The notes under the pieces are model-generated. The model was not told the origin of the DNA and made no database searches. It was given only the letters and a program-made list of their open reading frames with translations. Both the position numbers and the translations under genes were made by a program. A stretch of 38,608 bases of DNA from the UHGV virus genome UHGV-0017704; one strand, 5' to 3'. The DNA comes from a virus. Positions 1-38,608 of the stretch are shown piece by piece; the first letter of the stretch is position 1; every line of letters begins with the position of its first letter.

Positions 1-1388
1 AAGAAAGAGAACGTAAACAGCAAGAAAGAGAACGTAAACAGCAAGAAAGAGAACGTAAACAGCAAGAAAGAGAAGAGGCTAGACGGAAAAAATTAGAACG
101 TTTAGGAAAGTATAGAACCGAACAAGGGCGATTTTTACATTATTTAGTTGCTGAAGATATGACAAAGGAAAACCCGTGTATAAATGTTAATGGTTCAATT
201 GCTATATGGGACGGATATGCTTATACATTTGATGTATTAGAGTTTGTGAGGACAAGAATTAAAGAATATGACAAGGAAACAACAAAACGCGATAGAATTG
301 AAGTTTATAATACAATAGTTGACAATATCTACGATTATCCTAAATTTACGCAAGTTGATAAATACAGAATTGCATTTGATAATGGCGTATTAAATATTAA
401 TACCTTGGAATTTGAAACGGGAACACATCAAGAATATGCTATTTTAAACCATATTCCACATGAATATATTGAGGGTGTAGAGGAACAAGAGGAAGTTAAA
501 ACGTGGCTGAAGAACCTTGCTGACAATGATGAGAATGTATACAGTTTGCTGTTGCAATTGATTGGATACCCTATGTTGGTAAACTGTAACTTGCGAACAG
601 CCTTTATGCTTATGGGTAAAGCACAAGGCGGTAAAACAAAATTCATGGAACACGTTCAATTTTTATATGGTTCTAAAAATTATACAACGTTTGATATTGA
701 CGAGATTAACGGACGATTTAATAAGGTTCAAACATGCGGGAAGTTGTTTAACTATTCAGATGATATAGATAGCGGTTATATTGAAAAACCGAATTTCTTA
801 AAAAGACTTATCTCGGGTTTATCGTTAATGCAAGTAGAGAAAAAAGGTATTGACGGGTATGGATTGCCATTCTATGCAAAAATTATTATGAGTATGAATG
901 AATTTCCTAAAATTAAATTAGATAGTGATATTACGGCTTGGAAGTCAAGACTTAATATTATTAATTTCAAACATAAGTTCGATAAAAACCCTAGATATGA
1001 CGAATGGGCGAATGAAACGCTACGGAATACCGAAGCTATATCATGGTTAATTACTGAAGCAGTAAAAGCAATTAATAAAGCAGTAGATGACGGACAATTT
1101 TGTTATCTTGATGAAAGCTCGTTTAATAGATTTGTTGAAAATATTAACCCTATTCTAAGTGAGGCAATTGAGAAGAGTATAGACGATTGGAAAGAAGTAT
1201 ATGACGTCAAGAAGTGGTATGATGAACAAAAAGAATTAAATGCGTCAAAAACTTCTTTTAATTCTTTTATGAAAATGTTTAATAGTGTGAGTACAAATAA
1301 AGAAATTTATAAAACAAGGCACACGTCTAAAAAGACAAAAATAACAACGTATGTATATAGAGTTAGAGAGATTAAACAACAACAATAG
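1..1388 (+). CDS. SF3 (P4/D5-type) replicative helicase, 3' part of a gene that wraps across the window ends (5' part at 38452..38608)
   Basis: Frame 0 is open from nt 3 into the listed ORF 159..1388. Walker A motif MLMGKAQGGKT. The N-terminus carries in-frame 21-bp repeats encoding ERERKQQ that continue from the window end. Confidence 0.75.
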   Translation, partial: ERERKQQERERKQQERERKQQEREEARRKKLERLGKYRTEQGRFLHYLVAEDMTKENPCINVNGSIAIWDGYAYTFDVLEFVRTRIKEYDKETTKRDRIEVYNTIVDNIYDYPKFTQVDKYRIAFDNGVLNINTLEFETGTHQEYAILNHIPHEYIEGVEEQEEVKTWLKNLADNDENVYSLLLQLIGYPMLVNCNLRTAFMLMGKAQGGKTKFMEHVQFLYGSKNYTTFDIDEINGRFNKVQTCGKLFNYSDDIDSGYIEKPNFLKRLISGLSLMQVEKKGIDGYGLPFYAKIIMSMNEFPKIKLDSDITAWKSRLNIINFKHKFDKNPRYDEWANETLRNTEAISWLITEAVKAINKAVDDGQFCYLDESSFNRFVENINPILSEAIEKSIDDWKEVYDVKKWYDEQKELNASKTSFNSFMKMFNSVSTNKEIYKTRHTSKKTKITTYVYRVREIKQQQ

Positions 1389-1389
1389 T

Positions 1390-1780
1390 ATTTTTGCTGT
1401 TTTATTTCTAAAAATTATTGAAATTGTTCTAAGGCTTGGAACATCTTGGAACAATTTGGAACGAAGGGAATAACCGATAAGGCTAGTAACTACCTAGGCT
1501 AGCAGTGCTTCTGTAAAAATTGTTCAAAGTTCTAAAACCTTTCTTTCTCAAAAACTGAAGAAATATATATATATATATATATATATATAATAATAAAAAA
1601 TAAAAAATATATATAGAGAAGTAGAAAAGTTTTATATCTTGAAACATTTTAAAAATTGAACAGCAAAACATAGATAATTACTGGTTTTATCGGGGTTTTT
1701 AATTGTTCTAATTGCTGTTATGACTTTAGAACAATTAACTTATCACTTTTATATATTGGACATATTACTATTATTTGGTT
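1390..1780. promoter_or_regulatory. Putative origin of replication (iterons, inverted repeats, AT-rich unwinding element)
   Basis: Three direct TTGGAAC repeats (~1436-1465). Repeated AATTGTTCTAA boxes (~1421, ~1520, ~1693) plus a perfect inverted repeat AATTGTTCTAA..TTAGAACAATT (~1693-1735). (AT)13-14 tract. Non-coding, directly downstream of the helicase gene. Confidence 0.45.
1563..1589. repeat. (AT)n dinucleotide microsatellite, about 13 units
   Basis: Read directly from the sequence. Confidence 0.9.
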
Positions 1781-1820
1781 TATGATGTGGTGTGTATTAA
1801 ATGTTATTAAGGAGGTTTAT

Positions 1821-1988
1821 ATGTACATCAACGACGCATTAAAAGATACATTAAGAGATATGCTACAAGAATCAGACTATTACTTTGTATTAGCAGAAAT
1901 AGAGGACGCTTATGCTTCGGGTTGTCGTGACGGTTATGCTGATTGTTACGATACACAACGGACTCAATTGATTAGAGAGATATATTAA
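1821..1988 (+). CDS. Small hypothetical protein (55 aa)
   Basis: ATG preceded by AAGGAGGT. Same frame as listed ORF 1782..1988. Confidence 0.4.
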   Translation: MYINDALKDTLRDMLQESDYYFVLAEIEDAYASGCRDGYADCYDTQRTQLIREIY

Positions 1989-2107
1989 CTGTACACACAA
2001 TTTAGTTACATTTATGTTTCTTATGATTAATTAATCACGAAAGATATAAAACGAGCTTACAGAGTGAATAAGAGCGTTCTAGGGGTATTGTAGGAGGTTT
2101 ATATACT

Positions 2108-2275
2108 ATGACAAATACAGAATTAAAAGTTGCATGTACAACAGCATTTACTATTTTATTCTTTATGGGCTTCTTTGGTGAGGTTGGTTTATTAACTAGT
2201 TTTGTTGTTACAGTTATTTGGTTTATGATGTGGTGTGTATTAAATGTTATCTTGCACTTTGTACGTACAAAATAG
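2108..2275 (+). CDS. Small hydrophobic membrane protein (55 aa)
   Basis: RBS TAGGAGGT then ATG. Two predicted TM segments. Not in the ORF track because it is shorter than 60 aa. Confidence 0.5.
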   Translation: MTNTELKVACTTAFTILFFMGFFGEVGLLTSFVVTVIWFMMWCVLNVILHFVRTK

Positions 2276-2361
2276 TTATGTTTTTATCTCTAGGTAAAAC
2301 TATAAGCCGAAGATACTAAACAGGGCTTATAGGGCGTTTAAATGAATTATGGAGGTATTAT

Positions 2362-2499
2362 ATGAGTAGGAATAATTTAATTGACATACTAAATTATGCA
2401 CTCAATCAACACGGATTTGTTAGTTTGGTTGATGTGGTACATAATATGATTGAACGCGAATATGACAAGGGATACGATGAGGTAGAATATTATGATTAA
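2362..2499 (+). CDS. Small hypothetical protein (45 aa)
   Basis: RBS GGAGGT then ATG. Stop overlaps the start of the next gene (ATGATTAA). Confidence 0.35.
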   Translation: MSRNNLIDILNYALNQHGFVSLVDVVHNMIEREYDKGYDEVEYYD

Positions 2500-2919: not shown

Positions 2920-3080
2920 CTATCGCGCGAGAAGTATCCCGCCCCTTATATAGCCCCCTATCCCTTTTAATTCACGAATTTCACCCAACGCCCCCTTTAC
3001 TAAACACAATTTTCATATTGTAAATACCACTTTAAATTAATTATAATAAAGTATCATATGAGCATATGCTCATATTATAT
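2920..3080. other. Candidate packaging (cos/pac) region upstream of the small terminase gene
   Basis: Unusually C-rich tract (CCCGCCCCTTATATAGCCCCCTATCCC) in an AT-rich genome, plus a 20-bp perfect palindrome ATATGAGCATATGCTCATAT at 3056..3075. Confidence 0.3.
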
Positions 3081-3181: not shown

Positions 3182-3274
3182 ATGATAGGGAAAATGTTTG
3201 GAAAATTAACAGTTATTTCTGAATTATCTGAACGAGCAAATGGAGGTGATAAACGTGGGTGTACGATTAAATGA
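3182..3274 (+). pseudogene. N-terminal remnant of an HNH-like homing endonuclease
   Basis: 30-aa ORF MIGKMFGKLTVISELSERANGG.. resembles the conserved N-terminus (G-x-FG-L-TVI) of this endonuclease family. It runs into the small terminase gene in another frame. Confidence 0.3.
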
Positions 3275-3581
3275 AGAACAATTAAAACGTAAACAATGGA
3301 TTATCGAACGTATGGACGATTATAAAGAAATTGACGAGCCACTCGTTGAGGCGTTGGCGTTCGCAATTGATAGACTTGAATATATGGACGAGAGAATTAA
3401 CACAATCCCCGCCATGTTAGATGACCGCCAATTTATGGCAAGTCGCGATAAGTTTGTAAAACAAGTCGAAAGCGGTTTGAAAATGCTAGATATTACGCCT
3501 CAAGCTCGGAACAAAAAAGAGGCTGAAGCGGTTAAACAATTAGAAAATAAAGACCCTTTGGAGGCGTTACTAGATGTATAA
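3255..3581 (+). CDS. terS: Terminase small subunit (P27-like)
   Basis: About 108 aa, GTG start after GGAGGTG, directly upstream of and overlapping the large terminase gene. The ORF track offers an alternative start at 3240. Confidence 0.5.
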   Translation: MGVRLNEEQLKRKQWIIERMDDYKEIDEPLVEALAFAIDRLEYMDERINTIPAMLDDRQFMASRDKFVKQVESGLKMLDITPQARNKKEAEAVKQLENKDPLEALLDV

Positions 3582-5241
3582 AAAAGCCTATGAATATTGT
3601 AAATGGGCAGTGCAATCTGATAACAATAAAGTTCCTAAGTACGTTAAAAAACAGTGTTCACAATTTATAGATATATGGGAAGATAAGGATACTATTTCAA
3701 TAATAGACCACAACAAAGCCAATAAGATTTATAAATTATTACAGCTAATTAACGTACCTAAGGGGGACGGCGTAGGTAAATCAGTTGTAAATAGCCTCAC
3801 GGGCTTTCAATGGTTATTACTCATCGCCCCGTTTTGTGTGGTACATCGAGACGACAACAGCAAGAGAACATATGAGCAGATACTACTAGAAATCGCCCGT
3901 AAAAATGCGAAGTCTTATGTATCCGCCCTTATATGTTTGGTACTTATGATTTTAGAACCTAAATTCTCACGATTTTTTACAGTAGCACCAACTGGAGCGT
4001 TAGCCCGTGAAACATTTAGACAAATGAAAGAGTTTGTCAATACGTCACCCGCCTTAAGTAAACATTTTAAATTAAGGCGTGATAACATTATATGTACGTT
4101 AACAAGCTCGGAATACGTTCCGCTTAACTACAGTACAAGTACACTAGACGGAAAGCTCCCAAATGCTTGGCTTGGCGATGAAGTCGGGGCGTTACCTTGT
4201 AGCTATCCTCTTGACGCCATGCGTTCGGGTAGTGTACTATTAAAAAATAAACTAGGTATTATCATGTCTACAAAATATCCTACAGTTGATAACCCTATGG
4301 AGGCTGAGGTACAATATAGTAAAAACGTATTAGACGGGATAGTTGAGGATACAACTATCTTTTCATTATTGTATGAGCCCGATAAACCTAAAGGAGATTG
4401 GACTACGGATAATAGTATATTGGAACAAGCTAACCCGTTAGCGATTGAAGTACCTGTACTATGGGATAACTTGATTAAAACCCGTACTAAGGCGATTGAG
4501 TTACCCGAAACTAAATCGAATTTTTTAACTAAACATTGTAATATTATATGTAGTGAAACAGGTAACGAAGCATACGTTGATATTCAAGATGTAAAAGCAT
4601 GTGCTACGTCTAAACATATTGACTGGAACGGGCGTGACGTTTACGTTGGACTTGATTTATCAATCTCGGGCGATAACACAAGTGTTAGTATTGCGTGTCG
4701 CGATGACAATGGTAAATTAATTTGTAAACCTATGTGCTTTATTCCTAAAGATAGGAAAGACATAAAATCTAAAAAAGAACGCTGTAATTATGACCAATAT
4801 ATTGAAAATAATCAATGTATTGCATGCGGTAGTGATGTAATCGACTATGCAACAGTAGAAGATTATATTATTAACCTACCACAAACGTTAGGGGTTAACA
4901 TTATTGCAGTAGGATATGATAGGTTTAACGCTATGTCTACAGTGTGTAAACTGGAGGAAGCGGGTATACCATGTATTGAGGTTAAACAGCACTCAAGTGT
5001 ATTGGCTAGTCCTACAAAACTACTTTATGAGGAAATAACTACACATAATTTCATGTATGAAGAAAATGAATTATTTGAAGTTAATTTCGCCAATTGTAAA
5101 GTACAGTATGATACAAATATGAATAGATATGTTCATAAAAAGAAATCTCAACGTAAAGTAGATATGGTTGTAGCAACTTTGGACGCTGTAACCCTGTTGG
5201 AACAAGCGGAATTGCTAGACAGTAACTGGGTATGCGAATAA
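3574..5241 (+). CDS. terL: Terminase large subunit (Terminase_1-like)
   Basis: 555 aa. Walker A-like IARKNAKS. Length and position before the portal gene. Confidence 0.85.
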   Translation: MYKKAYEYCKWAVQSDNNKVPKYVKKQCSQFIDIWEDKDTISIIDHNKANKIYKLLQLINVPKGDGVGKSVVNSLTGFQWLLLIAPFCVVHRDDNSKRTYEQILLEIARKNAKSYVSALICLVLMILEPKFSRFFTVAPTGALARETFRQMKEFVNTSPALSKHFKLRRDNIICTLTSSEYVPLNYSTSTLDGKLPNAWLGDEVGALPCSYPLDAMRSGSVLLKNKLGIIMSTKYPTVDNPMEAEVQYSKNVLDGIVEDTTIFSLLYEPDKPKGDWTTDNSILEQANPLAIEVPVLWDNLIKTRTKAIELPETKSNFLTKHCNIICSETGNEAYVDIQDVKACATSKHIDWNGRDVYVGLDLSISGDNTSVSIACRDDNGKLICKPMCFIPKDRKDIKSKKERCNYDQYIENNQCIACGSDVIDYATVEDYIINLPQTLGVNIIAVGYDRFNAMSTVCKLEEAGIPCIEVKQHSSVLASPTKLLYEEITTHNFMYEENELFEVNFANCKVQYDTNMNRYVHKKKSQRKVDMVVATLDAVTLLEQAELLDSNWVCE

Positions 5242-5618: not shown

Positions 5619-6829
5619 TGTTTGATTGGTTTAAAAGTGAAAATCGAGCAACAGACGCGGAAATTCTTGCAGATGTAGCCGACGGGTTCGCTCCCCTAAC
5701 TGGAACAGCAAAAACACGAGCTGACGCCTTGAGTATTCCAGCAGTTGCTACCGCAGTTGATTGGATAAGCGGGGCTATTAGTGGTTTACCTATCCGAATG
5801 TATAAGAAAACTGATAGCGGTTATCAAGAAGTATTTGACGATTATCGTATTGATTTAGTTAACCAATACAGCGGTAACTGCATGACGGCTAGTGATTTGT
5901 TCAAGAATATCATTACCGACTATCTACTAGACGGGAACGGGTTCGCTTATGTGGTTAAACGAGGGAATAAGATTGAAAAATTGTCTTATATTCCGCCTAC
6001 AAAGCTAACTTATACAGAGTCAGTAGACTGTATCGATAAAGTCTTGAAAGTATGGGTTGACGCTCGCGAAATTCGAGATTATGATTTGTTGCGTATTTGT
6101 AGACATACAAAGAATGGTTTGACTGGTATTGGTTTTGTATCTGACAATCAACTTTTACTATCTACTATTCTTAACTCTTTGGACTACGAAAACAAAACAA
6201 CGTCAAGCGGTGTGCGTCGTGGTTTCTTAAAATCTAAATTCAAATTAGATAAAGGAAAATTAAAATCGTTGAAAGAGGCTTGGCAGAAGTTACGCAATCG
6301 TGATAGCGATGTATTGGTACTTAATGAGGGTATCGAGTTCGAGAACGCTACAAGCACAGCAACTGAAAGCCAGTTGAGTCAGAATAAGGAAATTAATACC
6401 CGTGCCGTACTCACATACTTTGGTTTACCTAGTAATTTTCTAACAAATGCTAACTCAGATAGTTACAAAACTGCTGTTATGATTGCAGTACTACCTATTG
6501 TGGCTCAGTTAGAAAACGCGTTAAATGAGTACTTGTTGTTGGAAAGTGAAAAGGGTAATTTAAAATTCGTTATTGATACTACTTCTCTTATGCGTACTAA
6601 CATTGTTGAACGTTATAACGCCTATAAAGTAGGCGTTGATAGCGGTGTACTCACAATTGATGAAGTTAGACGTCTTGAGTCTTTACCAGTATTAGATTTG
6701 CCATTTGTTAAAATGTCATTAGGCAACGTATTATATAATACCGAAAATGGTAATATTTTCGTTCCAAATACAGGCGTCACAACAGATATGCAAGGAAATA
6801 CTAATACTCAAGAAAATAATGAAAATTAG
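5618..6829 (+). CDS. Portal protein (HK97 family)
   Basis: TTG start after AGGAGGTG. Hallmark ALSIPAVATAVDWISGAISGLPIRMY. Confidence 0.85.
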   Translation: MFDWFKSENRATDAEILADVADGFAPLTGTAKTRADALSIPAVATAVDWISGAISGLPIRMYKKTDSGYQEVFDDYRIDLVNQYSGNCMTASDLFKNIITDYLLDGNGFAYVVKRGNKIEKLSYIPPTKLTYTESVDCIDKVLKVWVDAREIRDYDLLRICRHTKNGLTGIGFVSDNQLLLSTILNSLDYENKTTSSGVRRGFLKSKFKLDKGKLKSLKEAWQKLRNRDSDVLVLNEGIEFENATSTATESQLSQNKEINTRAVLTYFGLPSNFLTNANSDSYKTAVMIAVLPIVAQLENALNEYLLLESEKGNLKFVIDTTSLMRTNIVERYNAYKVGVDSGVLTIDEVRRLESLPVLDLPFVKMSLGNVLYNTENGNIFVPNTGVTTDMQGNTNTQENNEN

Positions 6830-21897: not shown

Positions 21898-23134
21898 ATA
21901 CCAACAAGATATTATAGACAAGTTAAAACCTTATAATAAGTGTGCATTATATTTGGAAGCGGGATGTGGAAAAACGCATACGTCATCATGTAAAGCCGTA
22001 TCGTATAACGTACCTATTATTGTAGTAGCACCTAAAGCGGTTATACCTCAATGGGTGGAACATTTTAAAGACAATCACCCCGAATGGTGGTTGTATGATT
22101 TATCCAATAAACAGCAATTAGCCGACTTTGTAAAATCTAAAGAGCCTAAAAGGTGCGGTATTATTACATACGGGTTAACTTGGAGGCGTCCCGAACTACT
22201 TAAAATGAGTGGATACACTCTTATTCTTGACGAGGCTCATAATATTTGTAGTCCTACATCCAAACAGACAAAGGGCGTTATGAAGTTGAAGTATGATAAT
22301 CTTATTCTACTCACTGGTACGCCAAATGGAGGACGTTACGAAAAACTTTATACGCAAATGAAAATGCTTGGATATAAACCTAACAAAAAGAAGTTTGAAG
22401 ATAGATATTGTAATATGTTCACTATGGAAACAGGCGGGGTAAAATTCAAAGTGCTTTCAAAGTCAAACCCTTATAAAAATATCGATGAGCTTAATACGAT
22501 ATTGAGGGATGACTTGCATTGTGTATTCTTGAAAACGAGTGACGTACACGAGTTACCGCCACAACGTTTTTTGCCTGTTCATATTGCTGTGTCTAAAGAG
22601 TATCAGAAATTTCTTAAAGATGAATATGTAGACCTTGGCGATAGGGAATATATAGCGGGTTCGCCTACTGATAAATTATTGTACTCACGTTATCTATGTG
22701 GGGTTGACAATAAAAACAAGATAGAGGTACTCACAACATTGTTAGAGGGAATAGAAGATAGGGTGATTATATTCTACAACTTCAAAATAGAAAACGATGT
22801 ACTCACAAAATTATGTAAGAAATTAAAAAAACCCGTATTCACGTGTGACGGGGCTGTAAAGCAAATCGATAAATTTAAAAGTATCGATAATTCAGTATTG
22901 TTAGTACAATATCAAGCGGGAGCAACTGGACTCAATCTACAATTCTGTAATAAGGTTATTTATTTCAGTCCTACACTATCATCTAACTTATACGAGCAGT
23001 CTAAGGCAAGGACGTGGCGTATCGGACAAGAGAATAAGTGTACTTATTGGAAATTAAAATGCGGGGTTGAGTACGATATTTACAACGCATTGAACAGCAA
23101 AAATGATTATACGTTGAAATTATTTGAGGGGTAA
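21881..23134 (+). CDS. SNF2-family (DEAH) helicase
   Basis: Motif I EAGCGKTH, motif II LILDEAHN, motif III LLTGTP. C-terminal GATGLNLQ and QSKARTWRIGQ. Confidence 0.8.
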   Translation: MMKLYKYQQDIIDKLKPYNKCALYLEAGCGKTHTSSCKAVSYNVPIIVVAPKAVIPQWVEHFKDNHPEWWLYDLSNKQQLADFVKSKEPKRCGIITYGLTWRRPELLKMSGYTLILDEAHNICSPTSKQTKGVMKLKYDNLILLTGTPNGGRYEKLYTQMKMLGYKPNKKKFEDRYCNMFTMETGGVKFKVLSKSNPYKNIDELNTILRDDLHCVFLKTSDVHELPPQRFLPVHIAVSKEYQKFLKDEYVDLGDREYIAGSPTDKLLYSRYLCGVDNKNKIEVLTTLLEGIEDRVIIFYNFKIENDVLTKLCKKLKKPVFTCDGAVKQIDKFKSIDNSVLLVQYQAGATGLNLQFCNKVIYFSPTLSSNLYEQSKARTWRIGQENKCTYWKLKCGVEYDIYNALNSKNDYTLKLFEG

Positions 23135-33320: not shown

Positions 33321-33333
33321 GCGTTTTAAGTAT

Positions 33334-37044: not shown

Positions 37045-37299
37045 ATGTTAAATGATTTCACAATTAATTATAGAGGGGTACAAATTGCCCCTCAGCTAAG
37101 ACATGACGTACAATGTGATGTATTATGTTATGACTACTACGATAAGCACGTAGAGGTAACATTTGATTATATGATGTATGATAGTTCGGTTAAAATGGAG
37201 TATATCGAAAATATTAAATATGTAGCCGAACAGGGTTTAAATGAGTTGCGTGAGCGAGATATAAACGATTGGTATAACAGCATGGTAGGAGGTGTATAA
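37045..37299 (+). CDS. Hypothetical protein
   Basis: 84-aa ORF. Confidence 0.45.
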   Translation: MLNDFTINYRGVQIAPQLRHDVQCDVLCYDYYDKHVEVTFDYMMYDSSVKMEYIENIKYVAEQGLNELRERDINDWYNSMVGGV

Positions 37300-38035
37300 T
37301 ATGAATACAAAATTTTATAAAGGATATACAGAGTTACGGAATAAAGTACCTACATCAAAACGCAAGAGCCGTATTATAAAGTCCGAGTGGCAAGAGGTTG
37401 GCGGGTTTATTGGTGATGAATATGTACTTGTTGATATTGACGATAAAGTAAACGCTGATTTGTTTTTTAATGTGTGTATTAACTGGGACATTAAATGTCA
37501 TGTGACTGAGTCGCGTCATGGAATACACGCCATTTTTAGAAAACCAACGGAACAACTTGCGTATGGTAACAGAAAAGAAACGTTGACGGGTGTGATTTGT
37601 GATTACAAATGTTCCAATAACAAGGGTTATGAACGTATCATAATTGACGGCGAACCGCTACCAGTTATTTATGGGTGTGATGAACCCGACGTTCTACCGT
37701 GGTTGCTGTTTCCGTTCGGACGTCATAGAAATTTACAGCAAATACAAGAGGGGGACGGGCGTCATAATATATTGTTAGGTTTATCGAACGTATACGCTAT
37801 GTATGAGAATGACCCTAGTAAAATATTATATGCAGTTAACTGGGTTAATGAAAATGTGTTCACACAAGCACGGGAAGCGGTCAATATTCGTATGTGTGAC
37901 GTACAAGATAGTATCAGATATATGAGTAAAAGCTATACAGATACAGAATTTTATAATATCATTAAAGACGTCGATAAGAATAAACTTATTAAATTGTGTG
38001 TACAATATGGGTTAATTAAGGAGGCTAATAAATGA
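37292..38035 (+). CDS. Primase-polymerase (AEP family prim-pol domain)
   Basis: Motif I VLVDIDD, motif II SRHGIHAIF (sxxGxHxxF). No helicase domain. An SF3 helicase is encoded separately downstream. Confidence 0.65.
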   Translation: MYNMNTKFYKGYTELRNKVPTSKRKSRIIKSEWQEVGGFIGDEYVLVDIDDKVNADLFFNVCINWDIKCHVTESRHGIHAIFRKPTEQLAYGNRKETLTGVICDYKCSNNKGYERIIIDGEPLPVIYGCDEPDVLPWLLFPFGRHRNLQQIQEGDGRHNILLGLSNVYAMYENDPSKILYAVNWVNENVFTQAREAVNIRMCDVQDSIRYMSKSYTDTEFYNIIKDVDKNKLIKLCVQYGLIKEANK

Positions 38036-38211: not shown

Positions 38212-38459
38212 AATTATATTTAAAATATGGGCAAGTGGTTGAATTAGGAAATGTACTCAGAATTAGATATGAGGGAGGTCACGAGGTTAAACCCTTTAAA
38301 TATAGTAATAATTGTGATGAGGTGTATGGTGTACCCGATAAATATTGTAGGTCTGAAGATGAACAGATGATTGAATTTTATAATGATAAGAATGAAGTAT
38401 TTCAATGTTACGAGTATGACGTAATTGGTGTATTGGAGGAAAGACCTAAAAATGATTAA
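38208..38459 (+). CDS. Hypothetical protein
   Basis: 83-aa ORF. Confidence 0.4.
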   Translation: MKLYLKYGQVVELGNVLRIRYEGGHEVKPFKYSNNCDEVYGVPDKYCRSEDEQMIEFYNDKNEVFQCYEYDVIGVLEERPKND

Positions 38460-38608
38460 TATTAAAATTGAATTGAAGAAGTTAAGAGATACAGGTGAGT
38501 ACTCACCTAACCAACTAAAAGAAATTAAAGAACAATGGGAATATGAAAATGAGGTAGAAAAAGAAAAAGAAAGAGAACGTAAACAGCAAGAAAGAGAACG
38601 TAAACAGC
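38452..38608 (+). CDS. 5' part of the SF3 helicase gene (continues at 1..1388 across the circular junction)
   Basis: ATG at 38452 overlaps the upstream stop. The frame is open to the window end, with (ERERKQQ)n repeats in phase with the window start. Confidence 0.6.
   Translation, partial: MINIKIELKKLRDTGEYSPNQLKEIKEQWEYENEVEKEKERERKQQERERKQ

Follow-up and report, generated by a model that had tools for sequence, protein, structure and literature searches.

The subject of this analysis is the non-coding region that follows the helicase gene in the UHGV virus genome UHGV-0017704, a stretch of 38,608 nucleotides analysed in full and called the window hereafter. With good confidence, positions 1421-1746 are predicted to be a phage replication origin of the Rep-iteron type known from Staphylococcus aureus pathogenicity islands and phage-inducible chromosomal islands (SaPI/PICI), located here in a complete cos-type phage. 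This reading is drawn from a SaPI-Rep-type helicase encoded next to the region, from the hallmarks of the SaPI layout, and from the turnover of the repeats on a conserved scaffold. A first-pass annotation, made from the letters of the window, had already regarded iterons and an unwinding element beside an initiator gene as the layout of an origin, and both the homology of the helicase and the comparison with relatives now back that proposal.

The gap after the helicase stop extends over 1389-1820, the next plausible gene starting at 1821 behind an AGGAGG. It is AT-rich as had been described (24.8% GC compared to 35.4% for the genome), and with 432 bp it is slightly longer than the ~390 bp given at first. 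The individual elements reported in it were found again: three TTGGAAC direct repeats at 1436, 1446 and 1456, with an exact spacing of 10 bp; several boxes including a perfect inverted pair, with arms of 13 nt each (1699-1711 and 1726-1738) separated by 14 nt; and an alternating tract, announced as (AT)13-14, which is an (AT)13.5 at 1563-1589. The elements of the region are as follows (strand given where one was assigned):

1421-1746: proposed origin as a whole, a two-fold symmetric array of ~326 bp centred on 1583.5
1422-1462: left outer iteron cluster, GTTCTAA at 1426-1432 pointing leftward and three rightward TTGGAAC with 10-bp phasing
1474-1496, plus strand: left copy of a near-palindromic scaffold element of 23 nt, CCGATAAGGCTAGTAACTACCTA, kept in lineages with other iterons
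1518-1535: inner-left iteron pair, GTTCAAA at 1522-1528 and GTTCTAA at 1529-1535, both leftward
1558-1657: predicted DNA unwinding element, (AT)13.5 at 1563-1589 plus A-rich AATAAAA repeats at 1592-1609
1615-1629, plus strand: conserved scaffold box AGAGAAGTAGAAAAG, at the right edge of the AT tract
1639-1662: inner-right degenerate iterons, TTGAAAC at 1639-1645 and TTGAACA at 1656-1662, both rightward, mirroring the inner-left pair
1671-1693, minus strand: right, inverted copy of the near-palindromic scaffold element, TAGATAATTACTGGTTTTATCGG
1699-1738: outer-right iteron pair, a perfect inverted repeat made of TTAATTGTTCTAA, 14 nt and TTAGAACAATTAA
1394-1401 (minus), 1659-1666 (plus) and 1712-1719 (minus): AACAGCAA boxes, at positions conserved in relatives
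1757-1786, plus strand: promoter-like site, TGGACA, 18 nt, TATGAT, directed from the origin towards the small genes at 1821-2866

The repeats had initially been described as two families. The repeats themselves are real, and the division is not: TTGGAAC and AATTGTTCTAA are one motif, TTRGAAC(AATT), seen on opposite strands; AATTGTTCCAA is the reverse complement of TTGGAACAATT. Exact copies of AATTGTTCTAA lie at 1422 (+), 1701 (+) and 1726 (-), and AATTGTTCCAA lies at 1446 (-); the common form AATTGTTCYAA is exact at these four positions, 1422 (+), 1446 (-), 1701 (+) and 1726 (-), with a one-mismatch copy at 1518, and five of six exact sites fall in the origin region. Seven of the 25 TTRGAAC sites of the window are found within 1426-1732 where 0.18 are expected (Poisson p ~1e-9), although such p values are optimistic because the motif was picked from the same data; independent support for the clustering comes from the relatives described below. 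With three degenerate copies at 1522, 1639 and 1656, the array comprises 7 exact and 3 degenerate iterons, six on the left and four on the right of the AT tract, and its first box starts at 1422, 34 nt past the helicase stop. Writing TTRGAAC as >, the order is < >>> (1426-1462), << (1522-1535), AT tract, >> (1639-1662, degenerate) and <> (1705-1732). The two 23-nt near-palindromic copies are inserted between the outer and inner iteron sets, one per side and mutually inverted. Iteron and scaffold pairs have a common mirror axis, which falls in the (AT)n tract at 1583.5. When the whole genome was scanned for ungapped mirror symmetry, leaving out the central 60 bp, no other dyad axis scored as high: complementarity is 51% here, compared to 26.7 ± 3.9% (z 6.3). 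Nearest-neighbour stability likewise designates 1558-1657 as the least stable duplex of the genome at lengths of 30, 60, 100 and 200 bp (z 3.9-4.8), the (AT)13.5 and the A-rich repeats together spanning 1558-1620. The genome contains only one iteron cluster.

Other types of origin were also considered. No DnaA box (TTATCCACA, at most one mismatch) is present in 1389-1820, and the genome has 8 compared to 15.8 expected; a DnaA-dependent, oriC-like origin was ruled out, as there are no DnaA boxes by the unwinding element. A lambda-type origin, in which iterons and AT region lie within the initiator gene, was ruled out too since the array is wholly non-coding and past the stop codon. Neither Rfam families nor tRNAs matched in the origin region. 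Two open reading frames (ORFs) at 1351-1473 (+) and 1483-1671 (-) were rejected as genes, being low-complexity read-through of the repeats that is not kept in relatives.

The helicase itself is composed, in order, of a coiled N-terminus (ERERKQQ)n, a D5_N domain, a DUF5906 superfamily 3 (SF3) ATPase and a C-terminal helix-helix-beta-hairpin resembling a winged helix; D5_N and DUF5906 are its Pfam matches. A family profile built from 30 members retrieved a sole PDB entry, the primase-helicase PriRep5 of SaPI5 (7OLA/7OM0, E=7.7e-24), and its alignment with 7OLA runs from the N-terminal domain through the ATPase to within 27 residues of the C-terminus. In the AlphaFold (AF2) model, which has a mean predicted local distance difference test (pLDDT) score of 79, the C-terminus folds as a helix-helix-beta-hairpin of winged-helix shape, and the best Foldseek match of the model is again 7ola_A (409 columns, template-modelling score 0.63), followed by poxvirus D5/E5 helicases. 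The primase (247 amino acids) matches the N-terminal 190 positions of a PHROG primase family, and the helicase corresponds to the middle part of this same family; pri and rep are therefore separate genes, as in most SaPIs. These similarities strongly support the prediction that the helicase is a self-loading SF3 initiator of SaPI-Rep type.

To compare the region between lineages we used the helicase family, which has 63 close members in metagenomes. About 35 loci were fetched and ~30 relatives compared; they are designated by L numbers, and the contig L006/L020, rearranged after the first iteron, was excluded from the comparisons. Relatives with helicases 41-88% identical have the same scaffold in the same place, and this holds for every locus with enough downstream sequence. 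From left to right this scaffold consists of the outer repeat cluster, the conserved near-palindrome, two inner repeats, the (TA)n/A-rich tract, a AGAGAAGTRGAAAA box, inner repeats, a AACAGCAAAA...GATAATNACTGG element and the outer repeat pair. At least 12 kinds of repeat core are placed on it, among them GTGC, GTCC, GGATAA, GCATGA, GCGTAC, TGCGCA and GTGAGTAA, each enriched in the origin region of its locus. The repeats are distributed as follows:

TTRGAAC: window, L017, L018
TTGAACA: L009
GGACAA: L010
TTAGGACT: L023
TTGCAC: L008, L014-16
GTGAGTAA: L013
AGGATAAAA: L011
TGCATAC: L012, L019
GGGACA/GTGACAC: L004
GCATGAA: L002, L003, L029, L031, L034
TGTGCAA: L007, L027
GCGTAC: L024, L026, L033
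TGCGCA / GCGCGCA: L028, L030, L035

The inner-left repeats occupy identical columns in 9/9 aligned sequences, where they read GTTC, GTGC, GTCC, ATCC, GTCAC, CATGC or TGCAC. The orientation maps of the repeats are identical across relatives, and when dyad axes were ranked over whole loci, the AT tract contained the strongest one for 10 of 14 relatives. All repeat copies of a locus thus change together on a scaffold that is kept, as co-evolution with a sequence-specific binding protein predicts. At shorter distance, two independent assemblies of the window phage have the same origin except for an (AT)n tract 9 nt shorter and one T-to-C change, which affects a box at its degenerate R/Y position; another contig of this phage, the third, breaks inside (AT)n. 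Breaks inside or just before the (TA)n tract were noted for contigs of several relatives, the loci concerned being the contig ends of L012, L019 and L040 and positions 2560-2590 of L039. The tract behaves as a microsatellite and as a weak point of assembly, its length varying between assemblies of the same phage.

Some loci depart from the common picture. In one lineage, that of L007 (4270-4764) and L025, an extra ORF of 164 amino acids lies between the helicase gene and the origin, and the array after it is intact. The contig L006/L020 (CYGL01000112.1) has a normal origin as far as the first iteron (aaaattgtttggaacaatttcaaaatc) and then genes in inverted orientation, the result either of a chimeric assembly or of a rearrangement that broke within the origin. 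The TTGCAC-type origins of L008 (4500-4545) and L014 (2560-2620) retain one TTGGAAC or GAACA-type box at an iteron position; such leftover boxes may be fossils of a recent switch in specificity.

The relatives also bear on which part of the helicase reads the iterons. Whichever helicases are compared, conservation is highest in the ATPase and lowest in the C-terminal domain (residues 365-500). Between the window and L013, whose iterons are entirely different, identity falls from 98% for the ATPase and 91% for the N-terminal domain to 73% for the C-terminal domain. Where two helicases exceed 80% identity in this last domain, a single base separates their iterons. SaPI Rep combines helicase and initiator, and its C-terminal winged helix recognises penta- or hexanucleotide iterons (PMC9371898). 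The concentration of divergence in the C-terminal domain fits this rule and argues against the N-terminal domain, to which the first-pass annotation had assigned the recognition of the iterons; the C-terminal winged helix is the likelier reader, on correlative evidence. No simple residue-to-base code between the C-terminal wing and the iteron sequence was evident when one was looked for. At the level of whole loci a matched Rep-ori specificity is apparent in the same correlative sense, the iteron sequence differing between relatives together with Rep.

From homology and comparison a mechanism can be proposed. Rep, produced from the gene just upstream, would act as a self-loading SF3 initiator-helicase whose C-terminal winged helix binds the TTRGAAC iterons in two mirror-image sets around the AT/A-rich tract. 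Binding on both sides would distort and melt this tract, and two Rep hexamers would then load in opposite orientation without a separate loader. First primers would be made by the separate primase and elongated by the host polymerase, so that replication would start bidirectionally, the concatemers being cut later at cos, ~1.3 kb downstream. The near-palindromic and AACAGCAA boxes probably bind a lineage-invariant factor, which could be a conserved part of Rep, the primase or a host protein, and the promoter at 1757-1786 would be a separate element at the right edge.

Two words are dispersed over the genome. AACAGCAA has 30 copies genome-wide against 1.6 expected, 21 of them on the plus strand, and is enriched about tenfold in all relatives whatever the iteron type (0.48 per kb). 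A second octamer, GTGAGTAC, has 29 copies against 0.9 expected. It occurs mostly as T-GTGAGTAC-A, on both strands and within genes (e.g. 1287+, 2879-, 5443-, 38495+); 8 copies are found in L001, 4 in L013 and 3 in L010, where it is thus frequent too, and some relatives lack it. Chi-like, priming or protein-binding sites are candidate roles for it. A flip in its polarity had been cited in favour of the origin, and this argument does not hold: strand segregation is not significant (permutation p=0.12), the switch falls between 1287 and 2879 and so spans both ori and cos, and the polarity is convergent, whereas a leading-strand motif flanking a bidirectional origin would show the reverse. The origin of L013 (2525-2700), whose helicase is 88% identical to that of the window, has GTGAGTAA / TTACTCAC as iteron, which corresponds to 7/8 bases of GTGAGTAC; a chance match among ~14 iteron types has a probability of ~0.003 on a rough estimate. 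One may imagine on this basis, tentatively and as a rather unlikely extension, a recognition with two components: lineage-specific iterons read by the variable C-terminus of Rep and invariant boxes read by a conserved factor, with the dispersed AACAGCAA and GTGAGTAC as replication signals. The invariant boxes may in that case be the near-palindrome pair (1474-1496 / 1671-1693) and AACAGCAA, with for example the primase or a host protein as reader, and the octamers, each present about once per 1.3 kb, may be priming or loading sites of the same system. It is the 7/8 bases shared by the L013 iteron and the dispersed octamer that speak for this extension.

Several observations weigh against an origin at 1421-1746. 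The iteron motifs were defined in the very sequences used for counting. The C-terminal domain is not a clean predictor of the iteron, as pairs of the same iteron class are sometimes only 57-65% identical in it. No helicase relative was found among 185,579 species genomes by single-protein and profile searches. The near-palindrome pair and the AACAGCAA boxes are left unexplained by the origin model. GC skew gives no support either. The first-pass annotation had named a skew minimum located elsewhere as evidence against an origin, and the detrended extremes are indeed outside the gap (maximum at 2875, minimum at 22993), while the raw skew is positive over every interval and its cumulative curve monotonic; this test is nevertheless invalid here because the genome is small with all genes co-oriented, and the skew does not refute the origin. 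Early and late genes, all on one coding strand, differ in composition; the extremes reflect this, and mark the early/late boundary and cos. Finally, 18 bp separate the outer-right inverted pair from the promoter-like site downstream of it, so that part of the array could serve as an operator, either in addition or alternatively.

This last point leads to the alternative that survives best, though we judge it quite improbable, according to which the repeats are the operators of a regulator acting on the promoter 1757-1786, at the boundary between replication and pre-packaging genes, and there is no origin. The promoter belongs to the TATTAGACA early-promoter family of the phage, with a -35 region TATTGGACA found in four copies in the early region, and inverted repeats adjacent to a promoter are typical of operators. 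Most of the repeats are however 100-330 bp upstream of it and flank (AT)n. Some relatives have the full array without such a promoter, and in L009 the ribosome-binding site directly follows the last iteron; the same arrangement is found after rep in a SaPI-like island. The repeat type moreover tracks the C-terminal domain of the helicase, and no regulator gene is adjacent. Rep could have a dual role and also regulate this promoter.

Iteron clusters of plasmids are known to serve in copy-number control, incompatibility or partition, by handcuffing or as centromere-like sites, and the array could by analogy have such a role with initiation taking place elsewhere. This we regard as very improbable: neither ParA/ParB-type nor integrase genes were seen among the proteins scanned, and the single iteron cluster of the genome is precisely where the weakest duplex and the strongest dyad are located. 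That the region is a packaging site, cos or pac, appears less probable still. It does lie between the replication module and the terminase genes, and the contigs L012, L019 and L040 break inside it, but these breaks fall in the (AT)n microsatellite, a typical point of assembly failure. Independent contigs of nine relatives end in or just past the homologue of 2937-3000 of the window, 1.2-1.4 kb further downstream, where a C-rich element (tatcccgccccttatatagccccctatccc...) is found upstream of and adjoining the small terminase gene. These ends place cos at 2937-3000 and not in the gap, and the C-rich element is probably the cos site; the detrended skew maximum (2875) and a conserved GTGAGTAC (2879) adjoin it. 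A chance pile-up of functionless short repeats in an AT-rich spacer can practically be dismissed, for although such repeats are common in AT-rich DNA, and most of 87 inverted pairs are trivial, the motif clusters far beyond expectation and its layout is kept while the repeats turn over in concert in ~30 relatives.

The setting of the predicted origin in the genome is the following. The first 42 nt of the window are identical to its last 42 nt, and a single 21-nt tandem repeat, itself coding, includes both ends. The window thus represents one genome of ~38.57 kb that was assembled as a circle; all its sizeable ORFs are on the plus strand. The main genes are:

3240-5241, plus strand: terminase genes, small and large
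to ~30 kb: portal and structural genes
31-32.5 kb: GH25 lysin and holin
from ~32.6 kb: early region, with HNH nucleases, a DUF3310 protein, dUTPase, primase and helicase
37292-38035, plus strand: separate primase gene (247 amino acids), upstream of the helicase
38452-38608, plus strand: 5' part of the Rep/helicase gene, from the ATG at 38452, continuing over the circular junction
1-1388, plus strand: remainder of the Rep/helicase gene (~500 amino acids in total), the stop ending at 1388

The 21-nt tandem repeat (1-74 and 38567-38608) encodes (ERERKQQ)n in the coiled N-terminal part of the helicase. Its copy number differs between relatives, and the assembly cut fell inside it. Searches in near and distant mode gave no DNA similarity of the region to deposited phages, and the large terminase is closest to that of Lactobacillus delbrueckii cos phages (49.6%); the window is an uncultured phage of a low-GC host, and apparently no prophage.

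Further elements were noticed around the origin. Promoter-like sites of a near-identical family, AAGTATTAGACA ... TATAAT, precede small early genes at 33331, 33609, 33810 and 35120 (and 1754). A direct repeat of ~38 nt (1771-1808 / 2213-2250) corresponds to the 3' end of a small membrane-protein gene (2108-2275) copied upstream of gene 1821; it overlaps the -10 of the promoter 1757-1786 and resembles a recombination scar. Between origin and cos are small paralogous proteins with a common (D/E)GY..GY.D motif (window 1821-2499; L001 5584-6290; L002 6049-6440), for which neither Pfam nor PHROG gave a match. Small genes are also preceded by an intergenic element that is repeated, at 2293-2345 with a weaker copy at 2045-2100, and in L001 at 6040-6095. 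The element at 2293-2345 contains a perfect 9-bp stem, CTATAAGCC ... GGCTTATAG, found again in relatives, and may be an RNA or terminator-like hairpin.

The design proposed for 1421-1746 is already known and will not surprise a specialist; what is new is a further example of it, together with an unusually clear series of switches in iteron specificity. The result allows an origin to be annotated with confidence in a family of uncultured phages that lacks DNA matches among deposited ones, and suggests that the SaPI-type combination of self-loading helicase and origin is used by complete phages too, beyond satellites. The relatives form a natural series, with one scaffold, at least 12 iteron sequences and helicases differing mainly in their C-terminal domain, which could reveal how a winged helix changes its DNA specificity or serve as a source of orthogonal replicons. 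Should recognition prove to have two components, the family would be a source of at least a dozen Rep-origin pairs that are orthogonal by nature and share one scaffold.

Comparison with known systems locates the predicted origin among those of self-initiating helicases. In dairy streptococcal and lactococcal phages such as Sfi21, a non-coding, repeat-rich origin follows a P4-type primase/helicase gene. The window resembles them by its repeat-rich gap after the primase/helicase gene, its cos siphophage type and its low-GC Gram-positive host, and differs in that no sequence similarity to any deposited phage was detected. SV40 large T antigen and papillomavirus E1 are self-initiating SF3 helicases which use dyad-arranged sites by an AT-rich tract, and load two hexamers for bidirectional unwinding; these are eukaryotic viruses, whose unrelated origin-binding domain is N-terminal to the helicase, and the likeness is mechanistic only. 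Phage P4 alpha unites in one protein an SF3 helicase and a C-terminal origin-binding domain reading short repeated boxes, an association also predicted in the window. P4 alpha includes the primase in the same chain and P4 requires two separated cis sites, ori and crr, whereas in the window the primase is separate and there is a single iteron cluster; no P4 structure appeared in the sequence search of PDB.

The closest correspondence is with SaPI replicons. The comparison rests on the summary in PMC9371898, citing Ubeda 2007 and 2012. In SaPI origins 6-12 iterons lie directly downstream of rep with an AT-rich region near the centre, at least two iterons being present per side of this region in opposite directions; binding and melting by Rep are ATP-independent, and two hexamers are believed to load by themselves, flanking the AT region (PMC9371898). 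Every sequence-level hallmark of SaPI origins listed there is present in the window, and a difference in the iterons themselves is a core of 7 nt, extended to 11 nt, compared to 5-6 nt in SaPIs (PMC9371898). With the replicons of SaPI1, SaPIbov1 and SaPI5 the window shares a homologous SF3 Rep with N-terminal domain, ATPase and winged-helix C-terminal domain, an ori directly downstream of rep with the primase upstream, and an iteron specificity that differs between relatives. In the window the inner pairs are << [AT] >>, the right one being degenerate, and the outer sets are mirrored about 1583.5. The window is unlike these replicons in being a complete cos-type phage of ~38.5 kb with structural and lysis genes instead of an integrated satellite, in a Rep only ~20% identical to PriRep5, and in the extra conserved non-iteron boxes of its origin (the near-palindrome pair and AACAGCAA), for which we know of no counterpart. 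The idea that the window might itself be a SaPI/PICI mobile element was rejected, since terminase, portal, structural, lysin and holin genes are present and only the replicon type matches. A similar case is the SaPI-like Staphylococcus epidermidis island PI-Sepi-HH2 (MT880871), whose proteins are annotated only as hypothetical. Its helicase is ~30% identical to that of the window, its repeat sequence is another one and its primase and helicase are fused; after pri-rep, however, ATAAGACA repeats follow in the same order and orientation, giving for its predicted origin the map < >>>> .. << [(TA)n] > .. <>. The arrangement is therefore a property of the whole Rep family.

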